Assembly: GCF_000009705.1 (NCBI RefSeq)
Contig: NC_003272.1
Span: 960,001 to 992,000, forward strand
Direction of reading: 5' to 3'
Length of the DNA stretch: 32,000 bases
Source: Nostoc sp. PCC 7120 = FACHB-418
Lineage (GTDB): Bacteria; Cyanobacteriota; Cyanobacteriia; Cyanobacteriales; Nostocaceae
In this document: positions 2,644-19,354 of the stretch, piece by piece
Numbering within the stretch: the first letter of the stretch is position 1
Layout of the letters: every line of letters starts with the position of its first letter
Translations under genes and position numbers: made by a program
Notes under the pieces: model-generated
Seen by the model: only the letters and a program-made list of their open reading frames with translations
Database searches by the model: none
Told to the model about the DNA's origin: nothing

Positions 2644-2964
2644 TTATCCCTGGAAGTGTATGGTACTATCAGAGTTATACTACATTCATCCTCAGTATTC
2701 AACTAAATCTTGATAGATAAACCGTAGTTCAAATTTTACACTGAGGAATTGTTCTGTTCATCTCTTGCATTGAAGATTAAAATAGCCACTGCATAAGCAT
2801 CAGGACAAGACAAAGCCGCAGATTAGCCTACGCAAGCACTGGAATAACCTTGGACTTAATTATTAAGAACTTTAAACTATTTAAGTAATTACGATATTGC
2901 GACTAATTTACTGAAGAATTATGTTGGTATTGGGAATTACTAAGAGTAAGTGGGTAGTAGATTA

Positions 2965-4083
2965 ATGTCGCTGAATGTAGAAGTCTTAGGCAATGAATCC
3001 ATGCCAATTGTGGATCGAGAAAATAAAAATTCAGTTAATTCTCTAGCACAACAATGGGCGAAAAAGTATTTACAGAATATCCAAATTGATGACGGATCTG
3101 AAGAGCGTAACGATGTCTTGTCTTTGTCAGAAGTTGTATCATCAACTGGGCGACAAAGAACTGCAAACAAAATCATGGAATCTTTGCGGACTGTTAGTGC
3201 TAAAGCCTGGAATAAAACAGAAGCTCTCTTATCGACACAAATCAAACAGCACAATATAAATCCTAATCTGATTAATCCCTGGGAAGTAGCAGGAGATTCC
3301 TTCAAAATTTATCAAAAAACTTTAGATGTATACACTCAACAAACTACGCACAGACCACTCTCTCTAGTGATGAATCAACTGGTTGAAAGCAATTCACTGG
3401 ACGGAACAGCGCCAGATATCTATACAGAACAAATAGCCCCTAATAAATTAGCTACAGTCATTGGTGCAGATATAGGAGCTATGAGAAATAAGTACACCAG
3501 TGTTGATCCGAGAGTGATTGGTTTTGTTAGTATGCAGTTTCATTATACTAGTCAAATGTTGATACAACCGCTCGAACCTCTGGAGCGATCGCTTGTTAGT
3601 GCATACTTTAAAGTCATTGATGATCATCTCTATATGCCGTTACAACGTGCTTACGAAGCGGCTGCAAATCATGACTATAATTCCCCAGCTATGTCCGCAG
3701 TGCAACGATTATTACCGATGAGTAGCCAAATTGCCAAAAAGATTTGTCACAGGGTGATTGAAATCTATCCAAGTTACAGTTCTATGTCCGGTATTTTGAG
3801 TGACCCTATTGTCAAAGTATCTAGTGTTAGAGATGTAGAAATGTTCCAGGTATATCTGTGGGTATGTGCTTTAGAGGAAAGTGTTGCATCTATTCAACAA
3901 GAATTATTTCCCCTATGTGTAATGCTGTATCCCAGATTGAAAGTGCATTGGGAATTAGTGCGGCAAATGTTGCACTTACTGGGACAGGAAATACAACATT
4001 GCCTAACTCCTGAACAATGTAAAACTTTAATGCCATATTTTCAGGTATTGTGGGATATGTTCTCACCGGATGTGTTGAGTTAA
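2965..4083 (+). CDS. Hypothetical protein (about 372 aa)
   Basis: Long ORF. The track starts it at GTG 2950; ATG 2965 is the first ATG. I recognise no confident family. The C-terminal segment SSVRDVEMFQVYLWVCALEE only faintly resembles a phycobiliprotein-like helical motif. Confidence 0.6.
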   Translation: MSLNVEVLGNESMPIVDRENKNSVNSLAQQWAKKYLQNIQIDDGSEERNDVLSLSEVVSSTGRQRTANKIMESLRTVSAKAWNKTEALLSTQIKQHNINPNLINPWEVAGDSFKIYQKTLDVYTQQTTHRPLSLVMNQLVESNSLDGTAPDIYTEQIAPNKLATVIGADIGAMRNKYTSVDPRVIGFVSMQFHYTSQMLIQPLEPLERSLVSAYFKVIDDHLYMPLQRAYEAAANHDYNSPAMSAVQRLLPMSSQIAKKICHRVIEIYPSYSSMSGILSDPIVKVSSVRDVEMFQVYLWVCALEESVASIQQELFPLCVMLYPRLKVHWELVRQMLHLLGQEIQHCLTPEQCKTLMPYFQVLWDMFSPDVLS

Positions 4084-5300: not shown

Positions 5301-5328
5301 GCAATTGCGAACTGCGAATTGCGAATTG
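5301..5328. repeat. STRR-type heptamer tandem repeat (GCAATTG CGAACTG CGAATTG CGAATTG)
   Basis: Read directly. Confidence 0.85.
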
Positions 5329-5434
5329 GTATTAGACCACCTCGAAAGCAAGAGATCACAAAATTATTCTAAGTATGATGTTATTGTTTTGGGTAATTGC
5401 ACCAAAATCCCTGAAATAACAACAAAATTGTTAC

Positions 5435-6517
5435 ATGACCTCTGGCTCACTGCCTACTAATCCCTTTGTGGCTGCGGGGATGATAGAAGACCCCAGATTA
5501 TTTGTTGGTCGGAAAGATGAATTATATGCGATCGCCTCTCGCATGAGTGGCGCACAGCCGACAAGTATCAATATTTTCGGTGAGAAGCGCATTGGTAAAT
5601 CTTCCCTGCTGTATCATTTCTTCCTGACTTGGCAGCAACGAGTCCAAGACCCCAGTCGTTATGTAGTGGTTTACCTCTCCTTGCAAAATGTGTCTTGTCA
5701 ACGGGAGGAAGATTTTTATGTCGCTGTGGTGCAAGAGTTGCTGAAGTACTCCAGTGTGGCAACAAACCCGGCTTTAAGTGACCCGTTGAAAGTTAGACCC
5801 CTTAACCGTGCTGCTTTTGCCGATGCGGTGAGAGAGTGGAAAAGGCAAGGTGTATTGCCAGTTCTTTGTTTGGATGACTTCAAAACATTATTTGAAAACA
5901 AGAGCGAATTTAACAATGATTTTTACAATAATCTGCGCTCTTTAATGAATCATAATGCTGTGATGCTGGTCATTGCTTCAGAGAAGAAACTTGATTTTTA
6001 CAGTAACAAGCATCAATTGACATCATCTTTTTTCAATTTGGGTCATGTGATTCCACTGGGTGAACTCCAGGAAGAAGAGGTAACAGATTTACTGCGTTTG
6101 CCTGCTAGTACTGTCAATGGGGCAGCACCAGCCTTGAGTATGGATGAACAGCGTCTGAGTCAGCAATTGGCTGGGAATCATCCTTTTCTATTGCAAATTG
6201 CCGGGGGTTTGGTGTGTGAGGCGCGCCAACAAGGGCATGATGCAAGCTGGGTGAAAGTTCGTTTTCATCAAGCATCTCGACGTTTACCAAAGTCTCGACT
6301 AGGTTCACGTAAATGGTGGCGATGGATGCTTTGGCTAGTTTGGGATTTGCCCGTGCGAATAGGTCAGATATCTAAATTTATTGGCGCGGGTGTGGGGGAA
6401 GTAACTAATTGGGTGATGGGAATCGGAATTTTGGTGATGGTGGTTTTGGTGTTTGCTGGTGTCTTGCATTGGCATGATGTGTGGGATTTTGTCCGTGACA
6501 AGTTGGGGATTAAGTAG
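5435..6517 (+). CDS. P-loop ATPase (ORC/Cdc6-STAND-like, PF01637/AAA_35-type by motif) with a C-terminal membrane anchor
   Basis: Motifs in order are the N-terminal NPF...DPRLFVGRKDEL, Walker A GEKRIGKSS, Walker B VLCLDDF and the helical motif GNHPFLLQIAG. The C-terminal hydrophobic segments are WWRWMLWLVWDLP and WVMGIGILVMVVLVFAGVL. Confidence 0.8.
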   Translation: MTSGSLPTNPFVAAGMIEDPRLFVGRKDELYAIASRMSGAQPTSINIFGEKRIGKSSLLYHFFLTWQQRVQDPSRYVVVYLSLQNVSCQREEDFYVAVVQELLKYSSVATNPALSDPLKVRPLNRAAFADAVREWKRQGVLPVLCLDDFKTLFENKSEFNNDFYNNLRSLMNHNAVMLVIASEKKLDFYSNKHQLTSSFFNLGHVIPLGELQEEEVTDLLRLPASTVNGAAPALSMDEQRLSQQLAGNHPFLLQIAGGLVCEARQQGHDASWVKVRFHQASRRLPKSRLGSRKWWRWMLWLVWDLPVRIGQISKFIGAGVGEVTNWVMGIGILVMVVLVFAGVLHWHDVWDFVRDKLGIK

Positions 6518-6519
6518 CT

Positions 6520-8988
6520 ATGAGTAATAAGTCTCCAACATCAGGCTTTTGGATTTATGTAGCTGAATGTGTTCGCCTTTTATATTGGGCTTATTTTAAG
6601 CCTTACACCTATGAACGCTGGCTGCGTGATATACATCCAGAACTACAGCCCAGAAATAACCCCTTTGATAAAAAAGCTGAGTTTCGCGCTAACCCCCGAT
6701 TGCGTCGCTATGCTGGGCAGGTTTGGTGGGTAACTCTGTTAGTTCCGTTTTTTGTTGTATTGCTGATAGCACCTGTTTACACTTTGGTTAGTGGTGAGTC
6801 GTCTAGATGGTTCTTCAGCTTTATTTTTTTCTTGGGCTGGGTAATAGGAATGTGTCTAGAACCTGTTAGGGATAAATATAAACTTGCTATTTTCTTTCTT
6901 GCCTTCCTTACCACGATTTTAAGATCTATATTTTTATCAGGCTTGGCGGTAGGCGTGGTGTTTGGCTTGGCGGTAGGCGTGGTGTTTGGCTTGGCGGTAG
7001 GCGTGGTGTTCGGCGTGGCGTTCGACTTGGCGCTAGGCGTGGCGCTAGGCGTGGCGGGAGGCTTGGCGGTAGGCGTAGTGGGAGACATGGCGTTCGGCTT
7101 GGCGCTAGGCGTGGTGCGAGGAGTAGCGCTAGGCTTGGCGTTCGGCTTGGCGTTCGGCTTGGTGATAGGCGTGGCGGTAGACGTGGCGATAGGCGTGGTG
7201 TTCGGCGTGGTGATAAGCGTGGCGCTAGGCGTAGTGATAAGCGTGGCGATAGGAGTGGTGTTCGGCGTGGCGTTCGGCGTGGCGTTCGGCTTGGCGTTGA
7301 TTCTGGGCGTGTTACGGTTTTACTTCTGGTTGGTGGAATTGTTGTGGACACTCTTCCTTTTCTTTTTTTCCCCAAATGGGAAGCAGGTAAATTGCTTAAG
7401 ATACATACCCCCCCGTTTTGATGAATTAATTATTTTGCCTCTACCTTTCTTGGATCAGATGATTGTCGAGGCTTATCGAGAAAATCCTTCATCTGCCCGT
7501 GAGACAATAGATTACCTGACGACTTCTACAAATCAACAAAAAGTTGCAGTACGGGCAACTATTGGTATTACTGCCGATATTCTCAATGGCTGTCAACGGT
7601 TAGAAGATATTTTAGACATTGCTAATCAATTAACCTGGATTCCCTCCCCACCACCAAAAGAACTTGGCCTTGTCCTACCGCAATTTTTAGACATTAGCCA
7701 AAGTGTAAGAGCATCCCAAGCAGCAACTACATCCTATCGCCGATATGAGTTACTCAATCCTCCTATAAATGCTTTACAAGAACTAAAAAACAATCTGGCT
7801 TTTGGGAAAAATGCTTCATTAGCTACTAAATTCGGCAGCATAGCCGAACGCTGGCTAAGAATTTTACAGACAGCACAGCGCATTTTAGAAGAAACAGCAA
7901 AGCAATCACAAGAAATCCGCCAAGTTTACATCGCCGGTAATTCACTAGAACCGCAAACAGCCAAGTATCGTTTTAAAGGGCGAATTGATATATTTCGAGA
8001 AATCGAAACTTTGACCCTTTCCGACCAATCACAAGTATTGCTACTTTACGGTGGGCGAAGAACTGGCAAAACTTCAGCACTTAAATATCTACCTTACAGA
8101 ATTGCCCCAGATATCATTCCTTTGCTGGTAGATTTACAAGGAACCGCATCAGCCACAACTTTAAAGGGGTTCGCTGAAAATCTAGCCCGACAAATTATCG
8201 ATACTGCACGACGCTTACCCCGAACAATAAATTTGCCTAATCCAGATGCCTATAAACTAGCGGAAGATCCATTTCCCGCGCTGCAAACTTGGTTAGGAGA
8301 AATAGAACGCAGCAATTCGGGTAAGCGATTTCTTTTATGTTTAGACGAGTTTGAACGCTTGAGTGAAGTAGTTAACGCCACAAATAGCCGTGCGCCACTC
8401 AACTTTATTCGTCACCTCCTGCAACACCAAAAACAATGGATTTTGCTATTCAGTGGTTCTCACCAATTATCTGAACTTGATGCTTACTGGAGTGATTATT
8501 TAATTAACACTCGCGCCTTACGCATGACTTATCTGCAAGAGTCCGAAGCCCGTGAGTTAATTCTCAAGCCAGTAGAAGATTTTACCAACATCTATGAGCC
8601 AGAAGCAGTAGATATGATTATCCAAATTACTCGCTGTCAGCCTTATTTGGTGCAGTTGGTGTGTTACGAGTTGGTAGAATTGCTAAATCGTGATATTAGG
8701 GCAAACAGACGACAACCAAATACGGCAAAAGCCACAGTCGCGGATGTGCAAGATATCATCCCCACCGTCCTAGAACGAGGTGATCAGTATTTTCGGGAAT
8801 TATGGACAAGTTTAGAAAATAAAGATCAAAGTTTACTGCGTCGTCTCATTGATGGCGAAACTCCCACACCACAAGACAGCAAGGTAGTCAAAAAACTAGC
8901 CCGCAAGGAAATCTTGACTCCAGAAGGTAATGCTTTTCAAGTGCCTTTAGTACAGAAATTTGTCGAATATCTGCTAGAAGAAGAATAA
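6520..8988 (+). CDS. Polytopic membrane protein with a glycine-zipper repeat domain fused to a C-terminal P-loop ATPase of the same type as the upstream gene
   Basis: The ATG lies 2 nt after the upstream stop. Residues about 60-290 are hydrophobic and include 30 period-4 G-x-x-x units. The C-terminal part has Walker A GGRRTGKTS, Walker B FLLCLDEFE and CQPYLVQLVC, the counterpart of the HPFLLQIAG motif in the upstream protein. Confidence 0.8.
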   Translation: MSNKSPTSGFWIYVAECVRLLYWAYFKPYTYERWLRDIHPELQPRNNPFDKKAEFRANPRLRRYAGQVWWVTLLVPFFVVLLIAPVYTLVSGESSRWFFSFIFFLGWVIGMCLEPVRDKYKLAIFFLAFLTTILRSIFLSGLAVGVVFGLAVGVVFGLAVGVVFGVAFDLALGVALGVAGGLAVGVVGDMAFGLALGVVRGVALGLAFGLAFGLVIGVAVDVAIGVVFGVVISVALGVVISVAIGVVFGVAFGVAFGLALILGVLRFYFWLVELLWTLFLFFFSPNGKQVNCLRYIPPRFDELIILPLPFLDQMIVEAYRENPSSARETIDYLTTSTNQQKVAVRATIGITADILNGCQRLEDILDIANQLTWIPSPPPKELGLVLPQFLDISQSVRASQAATTSYRRYELLNPPINALQELKNNLAFGKNASLATKFGSIAERWLRILQTAQRILEETAKQSQEIRQVYIAGNSLEPQTAKYRFKGRIDIFREIETLTLSDQSQVLLLYGGRRTGKTSALKYLPYRIAPDIIPLLVDLQGTASATTLKGFAENLARQIIDTARRLPRTINLPNPDAYKLAEDPFPALQTWLGEIERSNSGKRFLLCLDEFERLSEVVNATNSRAPLNFIRHLLQHQKQWILLFSGSHQLSELDAYWSDYLINTRALRMTYLQESEARELILKPVEDFTNIYEPEAVDMIIQITRCQPYLVQLVCYELVELLNRDIRANRRQPNTAKATVADVQDIIPTVLERGDQYFRELWTSLENKDQSLLRRLIDGETPTPQDSKVVKKLARKEILTPEGNAFQVPLVQKFVEYLLEEE
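6940..7299 (+). repeat. Intragenic tandem array of 30 x 12 nt, opening with three near-identical 24-nt units
   Basis: GGCTTGGCGGTAGGCGTGGTGTTT occurs at 6940-6963 and 6964-6987, and once more with a single change at 6988-7011. Degenerate GGCKTGGYGNTN 12-mers then continue in register to 7299. The stretch is visibly more GC-rich than its flanks. Confidence 0.95.
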
Positions 8989-11068: not shown

Positions 11069-11366
11069 GCGGGTTCTCCTGTTAAGTGTTTGGGCTTGGG
11101 GACTGGTGATTGGGTATGGGGGACTAGGTAGAATTTTTCACCCTACTCCTGACCACCCTTTTTTAGAGACTATATTCAAAAAGTTATCATTATTCTTATT
11201 CAAGAGTAACGTTTCCGGTATACCAACCACAAATAGAAATTAGACAAGAGAAGTAATTCAATCGGTGATTATTGTCAACGTTTAAGTACGAGAAAAAAAT
11301 GGATTTTAGGACTCACGACCAAGGGAACACCAAAAATTAACAATTCAAAATTCAAAATAAATGTTT

Positions 11367-11405
11367 TACACCCTCACACCCTTACACCCTTATACCCCTA
11401 AACCC
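11367..11405. repeat. Degenerate ACACCCT-type short tandem repeat
   Basis: Reads tacaccctcacacccttacacccttatacccctaaaccc. The short repeat AATTCAAAATTCAAAAT precedes it. Confidence 0.6.
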
Positions 11406-11510: not shown

Positions 11511-11699
11511 CTACCAGCCAACTCTGACATCTTGAATCAAGATTGATTTGTTGTAGAGTTGCAGAATAATTAGCAGAAACACAAGAAACAGGGCCATAAA
11601 AACACCCATTACAGGGGTAGTTCCCCAGCCTGGAGCCACTTTACCATACTCAGAATTTAAAGGTCGCAGGATATCTCCCAACCTAGTGCGTTGTGCCAT
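11511..11699 (-). CDS. psbH: Photosystem II reaction centre protein H
   Basis: [50 protein letters not shown] is an unmistakable PsbH sequence. Confidence 0.95.
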
Positions 11700-12003: not shown

Positions 12004-15000
12004 CTAGCCTTTGACTTCTAAAATTTTAAAAGTCGCAATTTTCCAAGGTTCAATTGTGGAGATTTGTTGCTGAAATGAGAATTGGCTAGTGGGGCGTTCC
12101 AGTAAATCTACTGGAGTACCCAAAGTTAAGTTTAAATCGCTCTGCAAAGATAACTCTGTAGTCACACCATGAGATTCATAAAAGCGCAGAATTAATTGTT
12201 GCTGGTCGTCTTCCGATGGTTTTATAGCCATTAAGACTAAATTTTCGGCTGGTAAATTTACAAAACTTACTCTGTCTCTCATGTTGGGCGGGTAGTGAGA
12301 GGTTAAGAGTTGGGAGTTGGGAACCGGGTTTAATATTACTTGCAGGGGGATGTTTAATTCATATCCCTTTTGTACTGTGTGGGCTGATTCCCAGCTATCA
12401 GCGTGAGGATACACAGTATAAGTAAATTCGTGTATGCCTGTGTCAGCTTCTGGGTCAGGCCAGGTAGGGCTACGAAGTAAGGTTAGCCTTAATAGCTGGG
12501 GTTGGCTATCGTAACCATATTTACAATCATTCAGTAAACTAACACCGTAAATACCCTTGTCTGTGTCTGCGGTTAAATCAGCCCAACGTAAAGCTGGGAC
12601 TTCCCATTTTGCTTTATCTTGTGGGTTTTGGGGTTGAGTCGGGCGACGAATTGCACCGCAGGGAATTTCGTAGGTGGCAAAGTCGGCTGTCAGGTTGAGA
12701 GGAAACGCTGCTTTTACTAAAACCTGCTTTTCTCGCCAATTGACTCTAGAAGCTATTTTTAATTGGGGTGAACCGACTTGCAAGATATAATCCTGGCAAA
12801 ATTCCGACTCGCCTAATTGACGCACTACGCGGAGGCGATTCTGTACAGCGCCTTGTTCTAACCACTGGATAGATTTGAGGTTGGTTGCTGGTAGGGGATG
12901 CTGACTATAACTGGGGTCGATGTTCCAAGCGTCCCAATATTGACCACTGTCTTTAAAAGCCTGTAGTTGATTACCCGCACCAGACAATATTTCTCGTTGA
13001 TGAGTTTTGTCATAGATGCTTGATAAATCTCCAGTATCAGGATCTACGATAACGCGCAGGTGTTCATTTTCGAGAACATAGTCTAGGGATGTGGGTGATG
13101 TGGGCGATGGGGGCGATGTAGGGGAAAGCCAAAAGAGGCGATAGCCTACAGATGGAATATCCTTGGCGAGAAATAGTAAGGTTGATGGTTCAGTTAATTG
13201 GGAAATTATTTGTTCGCCAGTCGTATCGTAGACTTGCCATTGTTGGTTAGTTGGTGGCGGGGGTAAGGTAACTGATACTACCTCAGAGCGTTGCCAGTTG
13301 AGAGAATTGAAAACGAAAATGGGGAAACTATCGGCTTTTGGTGGCTCTGGTAAGGTAAAGTGAGAAGCAATCGCCTGTAATGATTCCTTTAATATCCTGG
13401 TTCCTGTTTGTTCTACTTGCTGCCATTCGTGTAAGGCATCTATATATACTTGGGTAATGGAAGAACCAGGTAAAATATCGTGGAATTGGTTAAATAATAC
13501 TTGTTTCCAAGCCGTTTCTATCGCTGTTTTGGGATATGTCACGCCACAGATAAAAGTTGCCAAGGTAGCAAATAGTTCTGCTTGGTATAGTAAATTTTCT
13601 GAATGCCGATTCCAGCGTTTTTGGTCTGCGTGGGTAGTGTAGCAGCCACGATGGAATTCTAAGTATAGTTCGTCGTTCCATGTGGGAACTATTGATTGTT
13701 GACTGTTGACTGTTGACTGAATTTGCTGGAGATACTTTTCGGCGGTGATAAATTCTAAGTCTGGGAAAAATGGTGAGGTTTGCCAGCGTTGGGCGGTTTC
13801 TAACATATCACGGGTGGGGCCGCCGCCGTGGTCGCCGACACCAGGAAGCCAGAGGGATTCAGTTAAGTTGGTTTGGGTTTGCCATTCTAGAGAATAGGCT
13901 GCCATTTTGATGGGGTCAATACCTTCGCCTATGGGTGCAGACATAACACTGAATACTTGACTACCGTCAGGCGATCGCCACCAAAAAGCGCCATAATCAA
14001 ATTTAGTAGTGTCGTTCCATCGTAATTTTTGGGTGACGAAATACTCAATACCTGCATTCGCCAAAAATTGCGGTAGGGTTGCACAAAAACCAAAGGTGTC
14101 GGGAACCCAAACTACAGTCGTGAGTTTGTCGAATTTTTCTTGAAAGTAGCGTTGACCGTATAGTAACTGACGGACTATGGACTCCCCAGCGATTAAATTG
14201 AGGTCAGGTTCTACCCAAAAACCGCCGATAATTTCCCATGTTTTTGCAGCTACAGCTTGTTGAATTGCTGTAAATAAATCTGGGCGATGTTCTTCAATCC
14301 AAGCATACAGGGCTGGGGTGGAATGACAAAAGATTAACTCTGGAAAATCCTGTTGTAGTTTGAGGACTGATGCAAAAGTGTTTTGGGCTGCATTCCAAGT
14401 TTCACTGACTGGCCATAGCCATGCTAAATCTAAGTGGGCGTGACCTAATAAATAGATTTTAAATTTTGGGTCGCTGATAGAGAGATGATTTATCAGATTT
14501 TGGCGGATGGTAATTAGAGATTCTGGATTGGAGGGATTAATTTCTGGGATTGCTGCTGTGAGGATATTTAACTTTTCTGGTGCGGACTTTTCTAAATACA
14601 GTTGTAATATCGCTAACTCATCGGCAATAAAACCTGGGTCAGGATAATTATAATCTGTGGACTCGTAGACAAGGAGCGATCGCACTAAAGCACCATCACA
14701 ATGTCCGGGACTTGCTAGCCGCAAAGCCACTACAAATTCTTGCCCTGGTGATACTTCCCGACTGAGTAAAACCCTGGGTGAACAATCAAATAAATCTCCC
14801 TCTAGCACTAATTCCCCATTCACGTAGATTTTGGCAGAGTCCGCCCACCAAAGCAGGGACAGCCGCAAAGATAACCCCGCTAAAGGATAATCATGTAAAT
14901 TTTGGGGAACTACGAATTTCTGTTCTAGCCAAAGTACTTGCTGTCCACCACTCCAAGCAATGTTACCCTTGGTGTCTAACTCTACAGATTGCCAATTGGA

Positions 15001-15147
15001 TACACTAGATGTAGCAACGCCATTAATTTCCCTGGTCGAGTCCTGGTATAACCAAGTAGATTGAACATTAACTTGACAACAACTGCGTAATTGTTCAATT
15101 GTGTCTGAGATTAAATTTGTCTGAGATTGAGATCCGGTAGGGGTCAT
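12004..15147 (-). CDS. Glycoside hydrolase family 38 alpha-mannosidase
   Basis: LGHAHLDLAWLWP, VWVPDTFGF and GDHGGGPT are GH38 catalytic-domain motifs. At 1047 aa the length is typical. Confidence 0.9.
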   Translation of the reverse strand: MTPTGSQSQTNLISDTIEQLRSCCQVNVQSTWLYQDSTREINGVATSSVSNWQSVELDTKGNIAWSGGQQVLWLEQKFVVPQNLHDYPLAGLSLRLSLLWWADSAKIYVNGELVLEGDLFDCSPRVLLSREVSPGQEFVVALRLASPGHCDGALVRSLLVYESTDYNYPDPGFIADELAILQLYLEKSAPEKLNILTAAIPEINPSNPESLITIRQNLINHLSISDPKFKIYLLGHAHLDLAWLWPVSETWNAAQNTFASVLKLQQDFPELIFCHSTPALYAWIEEHRPDLFTAIQQAVAAKTWEIIGGFWVEPDLNLIAGESIVRQLLYGQRYFQEKFDKLTTVVWVPDTFGFCATLPQFLANAGIEYFVTQKLRWNDTTKFDYGAFWWRSPDGSQVFSVMSAPIGEGIDPIKMAAYSLEWQTQTNLTESLWLPGVGDHGGGPTRDMLETAQRWQTSPFFPDLEFITAEKYLQQIQSTVNSQQSIVPTWNDELYLEFHRGCYTTHADQKRWNRHSENLLYQAELFATLATFICGVTYPKTAIETAWKQVLFNQFHDILPGSSITQVYIDALHEWQQVEQTGTRILKESLQAIASHFTLPEPPKADSFPIFVFNSLNWQRSEVVSVTLPPPPTNQQWQVYDTTGEQIISQLTEPSTLLFLAKDIPSVGYRLFWLSPTSPPSPTSPTSLDYVLENEHLRVIVDPDTGDLSSIYDKTHQREILSGAGNQLQAFKDSGQYWDAWNIDPSYSQHPLPATNLKSIQWLEQGAVQNRLRVVRQLGESEFCQDYILQVGSPQLKIASRVNWREKQVLVKAAFPLNLTADFATYEIPCGAIRRPTQPQNPQDKAKWEVPALRWADLTADTDKGIYGVSLLNDCKYGYDSQPQLLRLTLLRSPTWPDPEADTGIHEFTYTVYPHADSWESAHTVQKGYELNIPLQVILNPVPNSQLLTSHYPPNMRDRVSFVNLPAENLVLMAIKPSEDDQQQLILRFYESHGVTTELSLQSDLNLTLGTPVDLLERPTSQFSFQQQISTIEPWKIATFKILEVKG
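13088..13123 (-). repeat. In-frame 9-nt tandem repeat (GATGTGGGY x4) inside the mannosidase gene
   Basis: Reads gatgtgggtgatgtgggcgatgggggcgatgtaggg. It corresponds to the SPTSPPSPTSPT stretch of the SPTSPPSPTSPTS insert on the coding strand. Confidence 0.8.
13693..13720 (-). repeat. In-frame STRR heptamer repeat (TTGATTG then TTGACTG x3) inside the mannosidase gene
   Basis: Read directly. On the coding strand it reads CAGTCAA x3 and is translated through all three phases as QSTVNSQQS. Confidence 0.8.
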
Positions 15148-19232: not shown

Positions 19233-19305
19233 GCCCCCATCGTCTAGAGGCCTAGGACACCTCCCTTTCACGGAGGTAACGGGGATTCGAATTCCCCTGG
19301 GGGTA
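19233..19305 (+). tRNA. tRNA-Glu (anticodon UUC)
   Basis: It folds as a cloverleaf. The acceptor is GCCCCCA/TGGGGGT with a G1-U72 pair, the D arm GTCT/GGAC, the anticodon stem CCTCC/GGAGG with loop CTTTCAC, and the T arm GGGGA-TTCGAAT-TCCCC. The discriminator is A and no CCA is encoded. The sequence is typical of cyanobacterial and plastid tRNA-Glu. Confidence 0.95.
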
Positions 19306-19354
19306 CTAAAAAATTAAATTTAAACTTTATAAGTTTAAAGACCTATACTAACTT

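Follow-up and report, generated by a model that had tools for sequence, protein, structure and literature searches.

A long period-4 glycine array in the membrane domain of a predicted STAND ATPase encoded next to a paralogous partner in Nostoc sp. PCC 7120

The stretch of the Nostoc (Anabaena) sp. PCC 7120 chromosome considered here (32,000 nucleotides of contig NC_003272.1, positions 960,001 to 992,000 of the forward strand; hereafter the window, in whose own numbering all positions are given) encodes two adjacent P-loop ATPases, alr0840 and alr0841, the second of which contains thirty consecutive four-residue units that mostly begin with glycine. ATPases of the STAND and NLR (nucleotide-binding leucine-rich-repeat receptor) type act as central switches of immunity and cell death in bacteria and fungi as well as in plants and animals, and, to our knowledge, their membrane-embedded members have barely been studied. 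The pair constitutes a conserved cassette of two ATPases in a model organism that is open to genetics.

The alr0840-alr0841 locus

The gene names follow from a published list of FurC (PerR) boxes, in which CATACTTAGAATAATTTTG is given, as a prediction only, as the box of alr0840 (PMC10406281): because this sequence matches the window exactly once, the open reading frame (ORF) at 5435..6517 is alr0840 and the array gene behind it is alr0841 of PCC 7120. The box hints at redox- or iron-linked control of the operon. The alr0841 gene starts 2 nt past the stop codon of alr0840 and the two are co-transcribed; a scan for promoters and terminators yielded matches no more numerous than in shuffled sequence. 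A homologue of alr0840 lies directly upstream of the array gene in essentially all of 71 related genome loci; the genes flanking the pair vary between genomes. The 822-residue product of alr0841 exactly matches BAB72798.1, and entries with the same sequence exist for Anabaena sp. FACHB-709 and further Nostocaceae. No mention of alr0841 or BAB72798 was found in a literature search, no NCBIfam profile matched alr0841, and a sequence search of the PDB gave no meaningful matches.

From its N-terminus, alr0841 is made up of a basic motif, three ordinary transmembrane helices, the array, a juxtamembrane motif, a helical linker and an NTPase region (Table 1). In an alignment of 72 sequences the columns of the basic motif are nearly invariant, AlphaFold2 models this part with a predicted local distance difference test score (pLDDT) of 70-88, and its core, LRLLYWxFFKP, is retained in Chloroflexi, Beggiatoa and Acidobacteria. 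The juxtamembrane motif, which is retained across phyla, has nearly invariant columns at R266, W270, E273, W276, P297, D301 and P309. The Walker A (GGRRTGKT, residue 511, 8050-8073) and Walker B (LLCLDE, residue 605, 8332-8349) motifs are invariant in the 72 homologues. The nSTAND1 profile (PF20703) scores 31.9 bits (E 1.4e-7), above its cut-off of 27.1, in a partial match to positions 91-321 of its 379, and AAA_22 matches with 27.7 against a cut-off of 27. Outside the array AlphaFold2 models alr0841 with confidence (mean pLDDT 74.7; approximately 75-95 over most of residues 481-822), and the top Foldseek matches of the NTPase part are MalT (8bob_C), PAB2304 (2qen), ORC/Cdc6 and the plant NLRs NRC2 and NRC4. 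On this modelling the NTPase part is predicted to adopt a STAND fold. A C-terminal repeat sensor (TPR, WD40, LRR, FGS) was found neither with Pfam nor in the AlphaFold2 model of alr0841, which ends at the winged-helix region.

A preliminary description made from the DNA letters alone had reported thirty in-register 12-nt units encoding a period-4 glycine array, and we recover the unit peptides exactly as they were given there. The units, with consensus GGC GTG GCG NNN, lie in the frame of the ORF 6520..8988 (+), and Tandem Repeats Finder independently delimits 6939-7298 with period 12, 30.0 copies, 74% matches, 0% indels and a score of 279. The first position of the unit is Gly in 25 units, Asp in three (units 8, 13 and 21) and Ser in two (units 24 and 26), and the sole Arg belongs to unit 15 (GVVR). 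The array thus presents the (G/A/S)xxxGxxxG or GxxxGxxx(G/S/T) motif of glycine zippers over 30 consecutive units, 25 of them with Gly at the first position. Chance origin of the pattern is excluded, as the longest period-4 run of G, S or D in alr0841 is 30, compared with maxima of 7 in shuffles of the whole protein (n=2000) and 8 in shuffles of the 120-residue segment (n=5000); the next longest such run in the other open stretches of the window is 7. The earlier observations that the array opens with 24-nt repeats, two identical and the third with one change, and that it is GC-rich relative to its surroundings are borne out (GC 0.647 at 6950-7249, against 0.41-0.44 in the flanks). So is the suggestion that the near-identity of its first units reflects recent expansion, in that the 24-nt triplication at 6940-7011 is the most recent duplication in the array. 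The same description had located the array within the second of two adjacent ATPases; the gene is the second of the pair, but the array lies outside its ATPase domain, in an N-terminal membrane domain about 250 residues upstream of Walker A. The coding strand is strongly skewed in composition (G 172, C 63, T 91, A 34), with GG at two fixed phases of each 12-mer, (GGN3GGN5)n, and the non-template strand might form two-tetrad G-quadruplexes or R-loops that contribute to instability.

At the protein level, the array is part of a continuous hydrophobic span (residues 120-283, Kyte-Doolittle value at least 1.6) that holds four charged residues only, namely D169, D189, R200 and D221. The proposal that the embedded Asp and Arg residues could line a pore receives no comparative support: the number and position of charges vary freely between orthologues, the arrays of Beggiatoa and of an acidobacterium have zero charge over 80-120 residues, and one Asp of the alr0841 array falls in units 9-14, the 72 nt absent from a 22-unit variant described below. 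A minimal version of the segment occurs in Chloroflexus sp. Y-396-1, where approximately 6 units together with a conserved WTVAFLLYYF make up just one transmembrane helix, the last ahead of the cytoplasmic motif YFRLP...YWDE. On the simplest view, the array represents an inflated last transmembrane helix.

The partner, alr0840, has its Walker A (GEKRIGKS) at residue 49 and its Walker B (VLCLDD) at residue 143, and its NTPase is a remote paralogue of that of alr0841 (BLASTP E 2e-4). At its C-terminus, an amphipathic helix rich in Trp leads into one transmembrane helix and then the motif NEVWDFVRDKLGIK, a tail conserved in 54 loci. Cassettes of this PCC 7120 type encode no enzymatic effector, their only other elements being membrane segments. 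An amyloid-signalling pair of the BASS/Bell type was considered for the two proteins and rejected on inspection only, as the alr0840 tail lacks G-V-A-x units and does not clearly resemble the N-terminus of alr0841. The cassette is chromosomal; no relatives were found among the viral contigs of IMG/VR, and a plasmid search gave remote Acinetobacter matches only.

Table 1. Features of the alr0840-alr0841 locus and, in the last three rows, of other parts of the window
Feature	Position	Strand	Description and basis
Predicted FurC (PerR) box	5359..5377	-	CATACTTAGAATAATTTTG; 58 nt upstream of the alr0840 ATG at 5435
alr0840	5435..6517	+	360-aa partner NTPase, AAA_35/ATPase_2/TniB-like; Pfam matches, motif positions
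alr0841	6520..8988	+	822-aa membrane-anchored, predicted nSTAND1-type STAND NTPase with array; exact match to BAB72798.1
Basic N-terminal motif	6520..6714	+	Residues 1-65, FWxYVAECxRLLYWxYFKP...NPRLRRYAGQ; conserved; probably cytoplasmic
TM1-3	6715..6939	+	Three ordinary hydrophobic helices, residues ~66-140; hydropathy; AlphaFold2 helices H59-91, H97-113, H118 onward
Array	6940..7299	+	Thirty 12-nt units, consensus GGCGTGGCGTTA, which translate to 30 x G-[V/L]-[A/V]-x, residues 141-260
Three 24-nt copies (units 1-6)	6940..7011	+	GLAVGVVF x3; two identical, third with T>C at 7011
Units 9-14	7036..7107	+	72 nt absent from contig L001; bounded by the 17-nt direct repeat CTTGGCGCTAGGCGTGG
End of membrane domain and juxtamembrane motif	7300..7449	+	ILGVLRFYFWLxELLW ... 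PRFDELIILPLPF; conserved
C7 homopolymer	7408..7414	+	In alr0841, codons Pro-Pro-Arg
Helical linker	7450..7959	+	Residues ~311-480; conserved in alignment; AlphaFold2 pLDDT 78-95
Predicted STAND NTPase with helical and winged-helix domains	7960..8985	+	Pfam, Foldseek, motif positions
377-aa ORF	2950-4083	+	C-terminal part with sub-threshold Pfam match to Phycobilisome (E 5e-4, 20.5 bits, cut-off 22.2)
Plastid-psbN 5' untranslated region RNA	11598-11658	+	Rfam 65.4 bits, gathering score 50
tRNA-Glu, anticodon TTC	19233-19306	+

Variation and turnover of the array

In a set of 120 close homologues the uninterrupted run numbers between 3 and 30 units. The segment between the near-invariant anchors W97 and R266 measures 92 to 263 residues, without any constraint to multiples of four residues or to a number of transmembrane helices. 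Arrays have a median of about 21 units and reach up to 45 period-4 units. When pairs of proteins at least 88% identical over 450 or more C-terminal residues were compared, only 3 of 145 shared a membrane region of equal length, and pairs that are 92-96% identical elsewhere differ there by up to 96 residues. The array changes far faster than any other part of the protein. The expectation that copy number differs between strains therefore holds among relatives, but not inside the PCC 7120 lineage, where the good assemblies all have 30 units.

In this lineage the 822-residue, 30-unit form is the one present in the NCBI, JGI and ENA genomes, and the complete genome of Anabaena sp. FACHB-595 likewise has 30 units. 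A form of 814 residues (28 units) occurs in Logan (k=31) assemblies only, on 23 contigs from 23 sequencing runs, and no Logan contig has 30 units. Four of these contigs (L079-L082), compared with the window, are identical to it over approximately 6 kb apart from one absent 24-nt unit. The 71 nt at 6940-7010 are perfectly 24-periodic, so that 31-mers repeat there and collapse of a k=31 de Bruijn graph is to be expected; accordingly, the 814-residue form is probably a k-mer assembly collapse, to which most of the apparent array variation inside the lineage is due. A third form of 790 residues (22 units), from a metagenome contig assembled with megahit (L001), lacks the same 24 nt and in addition the 72-nt block of units 9-14. 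All its differences from the window in this gene fall within 6987-7097, and four neighbouring proteins are 100% identical. As simple k-mer collapse cannot yield a loss bounded by no more than a 17-nt direct repeat, the 72-nt deletion, seen on this single contig, is probably a real and very recent change. Partial proteins that start inside the array were rejected as copy-number variants, being products of contig breaks. Assemblies from short reads and from k-mers systematically under-count the repeat, and copy-number variation in public data hence calls for caution. The FACHB-595 genome also has one extra C in the C7 homopolymer at 7408-7414, which splits alr0841 into ORFs of 300 and 517 residues (P0122 and P0123); either an error of long-read sequencing in the homopolymer or a genuine inactivation of the gene would account for it.

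The mis-sizing of the array by short-read assemblies raises the question of whether the repeat as a whole is an assembly error, as the preliminary description had allowed for, or a non-coding minisatellite that is open by chance. A circumstance in favour of the latter is that other frames and the minus strand are also open across it (6926-7375 and 6777-7088 on the minus strand, and frame +3). However, these frames yield low-complexity, Arg/Pro-rich peptides, such as one of 149 residues of the PRLSPRL type, and we rejected them as overlapping genes, since they are open only because the repeat contains no stop codons. The identical 822-residue protein is present on 10 contigs, complete chromosomes among them (the longest of 6,413,771 bp), the frame is continuous with conserved flanking domains in hundreds of orthologues, and all array indels are in frame. 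An artefactual or non-coding array is thus scarcely conceivable.

The units of the array are strikingly uniform in their use of codons: GGC accounts for 23 of 27 Gly codons, GTG for 26 of 34 Val codons and GCG for all 20 Ala codons, whereas the rest of alr0841 uses GCG for only 4 of 48 Ala residues. Columns 3, 6 and 9 of the unit, which are four-fold degenerate third positions, are nearly invariant, and variation is found in column 4 (V/L), column 8 (A/V) and columns 10-12, i.e. the fourth codon. Consistently, the pairwise diversity between units (pi) is 0.105 at the synonymous columns 3, 6 and 9, rises to 0.213 at the first two positions of codons 1-3, and reaches 0.46-0.56 within the fourth codon. 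The similarity of units to their consensus (Psim) is 0.82 for the 12-nt and 0.85 for the 60-nt unit of DNA, and 0.63 for the protein. A GGC-GTG-GCG unit is common to most Nostocales arrays, and other lineages have units of their own: GGC-GTG-GCT in 23 of the 28 units of locus L076, GGT-GTG in L074 and GGT-TTA (encoding GLxx) in L077. A universal nucleotide-level constraint on GGC-GTG-GCG was rejected on this account, as other lineages have homogenised to GCT or GGT-TTA. These patterns show the array to be a DNA-level repeat in concerted evolution, whose uniformity comes from turnover inside each array, units being duplicated and lost. Since different lineages encode the pattern with different codons, it is apparently the succession of a glycine, a hydrophobic residue, a small residue and any residue that is selected, at the level of the protein; across arrays the first position is Gly in 87% of units and the second V in 72%. 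Mutagenesis by a diversity-generating retroelement was also considered and rejected, the variation not being adenine-specific and no reverse transcriptase or template repeat lying nearby.

Relatives, partners and possible roles of the array

A search for the wider family, seeded with the distant member P0148, recovered proteins with a common layout of the LRLLYWxFFKP motif, transmembrane helices, a G-V-A-x array, a YWDE.IW.PLP motif, the linker and the NTPase. This layout is found in many filamentous cyanobacteria, Desulfococcaceae/Desulfobacterales, Beggiatoa sp. PS, Roseiflexus, Chloroflexus and other Chloroflexota, and Pyrinomonadaceae, so that the family of alr0841-type arrays spans five phyla. 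In two of the wider-family cassettes the upstream partner has an N-terminal TIR domain and no membrane tail, and the array protein is kept. More generally, the homologues of the upstream, alr0840-type member (partner 1) recovered in a search with the ATPase part of this TIR-bearing partner carry, according to precomputed Pfam matches, N-terminal TIR or SEFIR, caspase (Peptidase_C14), trypsin, CHAT or HTH domains, or PF19955 or PF19960, which we take to be effector-associated domains. Several of them share contigs with array proteins. The alr0841-type member (partner 2) varies too: in P0303/P0304 its N-terminal slot holds a TIR domain and two transmembrane helices. The helical linker is found in every partner-2 variant seen, including those of locus L083 and P0303. 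At locus L084 (1240-8105) we observed genes for Trypco1, a trypsin-STAND protein and a TIR-2TM-linker-NTPase relative of alr0841 (2TM, two transmembrane helices), and at L083 (747-9564) genes for two caspase proteins, a secreted 765-residue protein, a caspase-STAND protein and a 963-residue, double-ATPase relative of alr0841, which has an additional ATPase module in the place of partner 2's membrane module.

The repertoire of TIR, caspase, trypsin, CHAT and Trypco is the one found in multicellular prokaryotes among conflict systems of the NLR-like kind (PMC7159879, PMC8195603). We place alr0840-alr0841 among these systems because the partner ATPase of their relatives carries TIR, caspase, trypsin or CHAT domains; on such comparisons the cassette would encode an immune-receptor-like ATPase pair, found mainly in filamentous bacteria. 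It shares with the nSTAND1 and NLR-like systems (PMC7159879, PMC8195603) the P-loop NTPase with helical and winged-helix parts, the bias towards filamentous bacteria, the two-gene organization, and relatives and partners with TIR, caspase, trypsin, CHAT or Trypco domains. Unlike them, alr0841 lacks C-terminal sensor repeats and has an N-terminal multi-pass membrane domain with a long period-4 Gly array, and two paralogous NTPases are paired, both of which are membrane-tethered in the PCC 7120 type. Glycine zippers go unmentioned in the two studies concerned (Kaur, Burroughs, Iyer and Aravind 2020/2021; PMC7159879, PMC8195603). That classical effector domains sit on the partner ATPase in relatives means that the array module is not necessarily the killing part.

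As the preliminary description had proposed, period-4 glycine arrays were sought in fusion with other NTPases, and beyond the wider family in five phyla the search brought up 30 actinobacterial NACHT proteins. A phmmer search with the 120-residue array alone against 1.84 billion representative proteins gave 372 matches at E up to 1e-3. The top 148 of these comprise 38 alr0841-like proteins, 30 NACHT proteins with the array C-terminal of the NTPase, 66 short proteins (<450 aa) that are mostly fragments, 13 long proteins without a P-loop, and 1 other P-loop protein. In the NACHT proteins the arrays, of the GLxxGLxx type, form blocks of 40-60 residues parted by basic loops, followed by a conserved C-terminal FLxDAxxRGxLRxVGxxYxFRH, and in some cases a TIR or HTH domain stands at the N-terminus. 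They come from Streptomyces and Nonomuraea, to give named examples, and from metagenomes (e.g. P0145, P0153, P0156, P0164 and P0171; locus L078). Thus they differ from alr0841, a member of the nSTAND1 clade, in belonging to the NACHT clade, in having arrays that are C-terminal and broken into blocks, and in the lack of a paired ATPase at the one array-NACHT locus inspected. The actinobacterial arrays arose independently of those of the alr0841 type. No paper connecting glycine zippers with STAND or NACHT proteins came up in a literature search, and none on cyanobacterial tandem repeats of GxxxG. Kibby et al. (bioRxiv 10.1101/2022.07.19.500537) recognize a transmembrane category among bacterial NACHT proteins' C-terminal regions, and in their main text a glycine periodicity is not described. 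The bacterial NACHT proteins of that study and alr0841 have in common the combination of a STAND NTPase with a membrane region.

What might such an array do? Glycine-zipper motifs have a documented role in tight helix packing and in membrane permeabilisation, and alr0841 resembles the glycine-zipper toxins and channels (VacA, TelE, EsxX, CdzC/CdzD, Tde1) in having a small residue at every fourth position of a hydrophobic stretch. It differs from the known examples, which have 2-5 motifs on one or two helices, in its 30 consecutive loop-less units spanning 120 residues, in their origin from a homogenised DNA repeat, in being fused to an NTPase and not secreted, and in the lack of a match to a Pfam zipper model. 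We tentatively favour the possibility that the array is an oligomerisation-driven, membrane-active module. Under this proposal, alr0841 would be a membrane-anchored STAND (NLR-like) NTPase paired with its tail-anchored paralogue alr0840, and the array an expandable intramembrane segment, in which the final helix of the N-terminal membrane domain has been enlarged by a 12-nt DNA repeat. A trigger would cause both NTPases to bind nucleotide and oligomerise at the membrane, crowding many glycine-faced helices, whose flat Gly faces could allow lateral glycine-zipper packing into a large assembly. That assembly may then breach or depolarise the affected cell's membrane, so that a single cell of the filament is sacrificed. 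Repeat slippage and unequal recombination would keep altering the number of units, a change that might be tolerated because all units are equivalent. A precedent comes from TelE, EsxX and CdzC/D, in which glycine-zipper segments are reported to be the toxic, membrane-depolarising part (PMC10434224, PMC12744356, PMC5380434). Also in support of a membrane-active module are the position of the array in the N-terminal slot, the classical effector slot that is occupied by TIR in P0303/P0304, the lack of an enzymatic effector in the PCC 7120-type cassette, and the convergent period-4 Gly arrays of actinobacterial NACHT proteins. There is a functional analogy with the paired plant NLRs and resistosomes (ZAR1, NRC helpers), in which two adjacent paralogous STAND ATPases occur and oligomerisation gathers N-terminal helices at the membrane; as noted above, NRC2 and NRC4 are among the Foldseek matches of the NTPase part. 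The analogy goes no further, as there is no N-terminal sequence relationship, and the plant coiled-coil helices insert after activation whereas alr0841 is predicted to be permanently embedded in the membrane. If the array were indeed a killing module, it would represent a new way to build a membrane lesion from a tunable repeat.

Several observations weigh against this proposal. Relatives with TIR, caspase or trypsin on partner 1 keep the array protein, which indicates that the array is not needed as the sole effector, and the NACHT arrays occupy the C-terminal slot that is usual for sensors. A hydrophobic domain of about 160 residues that is constitutively inserted would need tight gating. 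AlphaFold2, run on 72-sequence alignments, draws long array helices whose pLDDT stays below 50, in alr0841 as well as in P0027, an orthologue with a short array. Pfam searches with the array and the N-terminal 300 residues at E up to 10 returned no match to any family, glycine-zipper families included (the profiles considered being Gly-zipper_Omp/OmpA/YMGG, Rick_17kDa_Anti and PF26273 Gly_zipper), and a relative, P0165, has only a 'faint' precomputed match to PF26273. The distant orthologues P0108, P0118, P0086 and P0287 have ordinary hydrophobic sequence where the Gly repeats would be. In PCC 7120 the cassette lies outside any defence island, among housekeeping genes, and PADLOC-DB v2 gave no convincing match, the only hits being to PDC-S27 in the P-loop region (E 0.0098 and 0.0026; 12.8 and 14.7 bits). 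Finally, hypervariable and internally homogenised repeats are typical of the sensor domains of NLRs and not of their effectors (PMC13449251).

This last point leads to the main rival possibility, that the array is an intramembrane variable sensor, forming the input domain of a split NLR-like pair. Its Gly faces would then pack the helices together, and the variable fourth residue, along with the V/L and A/V alternation, would constitute a diversifiable, lipid-facing surface directed at membrane proteins of invaders (holins, injection or superinfection proteins, glycine-zipper toxins) or at membrane perturbation; the signal would pass through the NTPases to the effector of partner 1, namely TIR, caspase or trypsin in relatives and the membrane tail in alr0840. 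The evolutionary signature of the array, with homogeneity at the DNA level, change in unit number and few variable positions, resembles that of the repeats with high internal conservation (HIC) in NLRs (PMC13449251). The HIC repeats of fungal NLRs (HET-E/NWD WD40, ANK, TPR) and of NLR-like ATPases elsewhere also share with the array the association with a STAND ATPase and the need for long reads in sizing (PMC13449251). Unlike the array, whose unit of four residues is hydrophobic, N-terminal and predicted to be intramembrane, they are units of 24-42 residues that are soluble, form a superstructure and serve as a C-terminal sensor; moreover, the protein-level Psim of the array falls short of the criterion of at least 0.70 that has been applied in print to protein repeats (PMC13449251), and only its DNA-level value exceeds it. 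Further points speak for a sensor: the two partners complement each other, in that the homologues of partner 1 are short and combine an effector with an NTPase but have no sensor repeats, and partner 2 is without an enzymatic effector; moreover, the cassettes with TIR on partner 1 retain the array, the 30 NACHT representatives have it in the C-terminal sensor slot, some with TIR or HTH at the N-terminus, and neither cassette protein offers another candidate sensor repeat in Pfam or AlphaFold2 analyses. Against it stand the N-terminal position, a slot that usually belongs to effectors and holds TIR in P0303/P0304, the possibility that the sensor is instead the conserved linker of helices at residues 311-480, and the fact that an excess of nonsynonymous variation can come from duplication of longer units of 24-60 nt without positive selection. 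We also know of no intramembrane NLR sensor, which counts against this explanation. On balance we regard a sensor role as somewhat less likely than a membrane-active module. We see a similarly modest likelihood for its extension, that period-4 glycine arrays are an unrecognised class of NLR sensor inside the membrane, adopted independently by the nSTAND1-like cassettes of cyanobacteria, Chloroflexi, Beggiatoa and Desulfobacterales and by actinobacterial NACHT proteins. If true, the sensor role would make the array the first case, among NLR-like proteins, of a recognition domain that lies inside the membrane and is diversified through repeats.

A third explanation would deprive the array of any specific role in its number or sequence, making it a passive anchor or slippage-driven filler, that is, a selfish minisatellite tolerated because G-V-A-x is compatible with the membrane. 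The lack of length constraint between W97 and R266 is in keeping with this, as are the ordinary transmembrane sequence of some distant orthologues, the two plain transmembrane helices with which the TIR-fused relatives manage, and the lack of a defined fold for the array in AlphaFold2; the G-rich coding strand, with its GG at two fixed phases per unit, may itself favour instability. It is nonetheless disfavoured, since the Gly pattern is preserved at the protein level across phyla and is convergent: G-[V/L]-[A]-x is retained across the five phyla although their codons differ, actinobacterial NACHT proteins have acquired the pattern on their own, the preference for Gly and V at the first two positions persists, and the arrays stay long, with no decay. 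A merely passive array is therefore unlikely.

The NTPase family and glycine zippers are each known, and it is their combination that appears to be undescribed: a loop-less array, homogenised at the DNA level and hypervariable in length, in a paired membrane STAND system, and mirrored in the actinobacterial NACHT proteins.

Further features of the window

Short heptamer and octamer tandem repeats occur at 1200-1230, 1259-1281, 5303-5328, 11333-11405 and 13688-13719, with units AATTGGT, CCCAGTC, AATTGCG, AAAATTC/TTACACCC and ACTGTTG; one lies just upstream of alr0840, and one within an ORF for a GH38 alpha-mannosidase (12004..15147, minus strand). They look like the short tandemly repeated repetitive (STRR) sequences typical of heterocystous cyanobacteria. 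The psbN 5' untranslated region RNA match listed in Table 1 adjoins the psbH and psbN genes seen in related contigs, and the 377-residue ORF at 2950-4083 is 100% conserved in the related contig L001.

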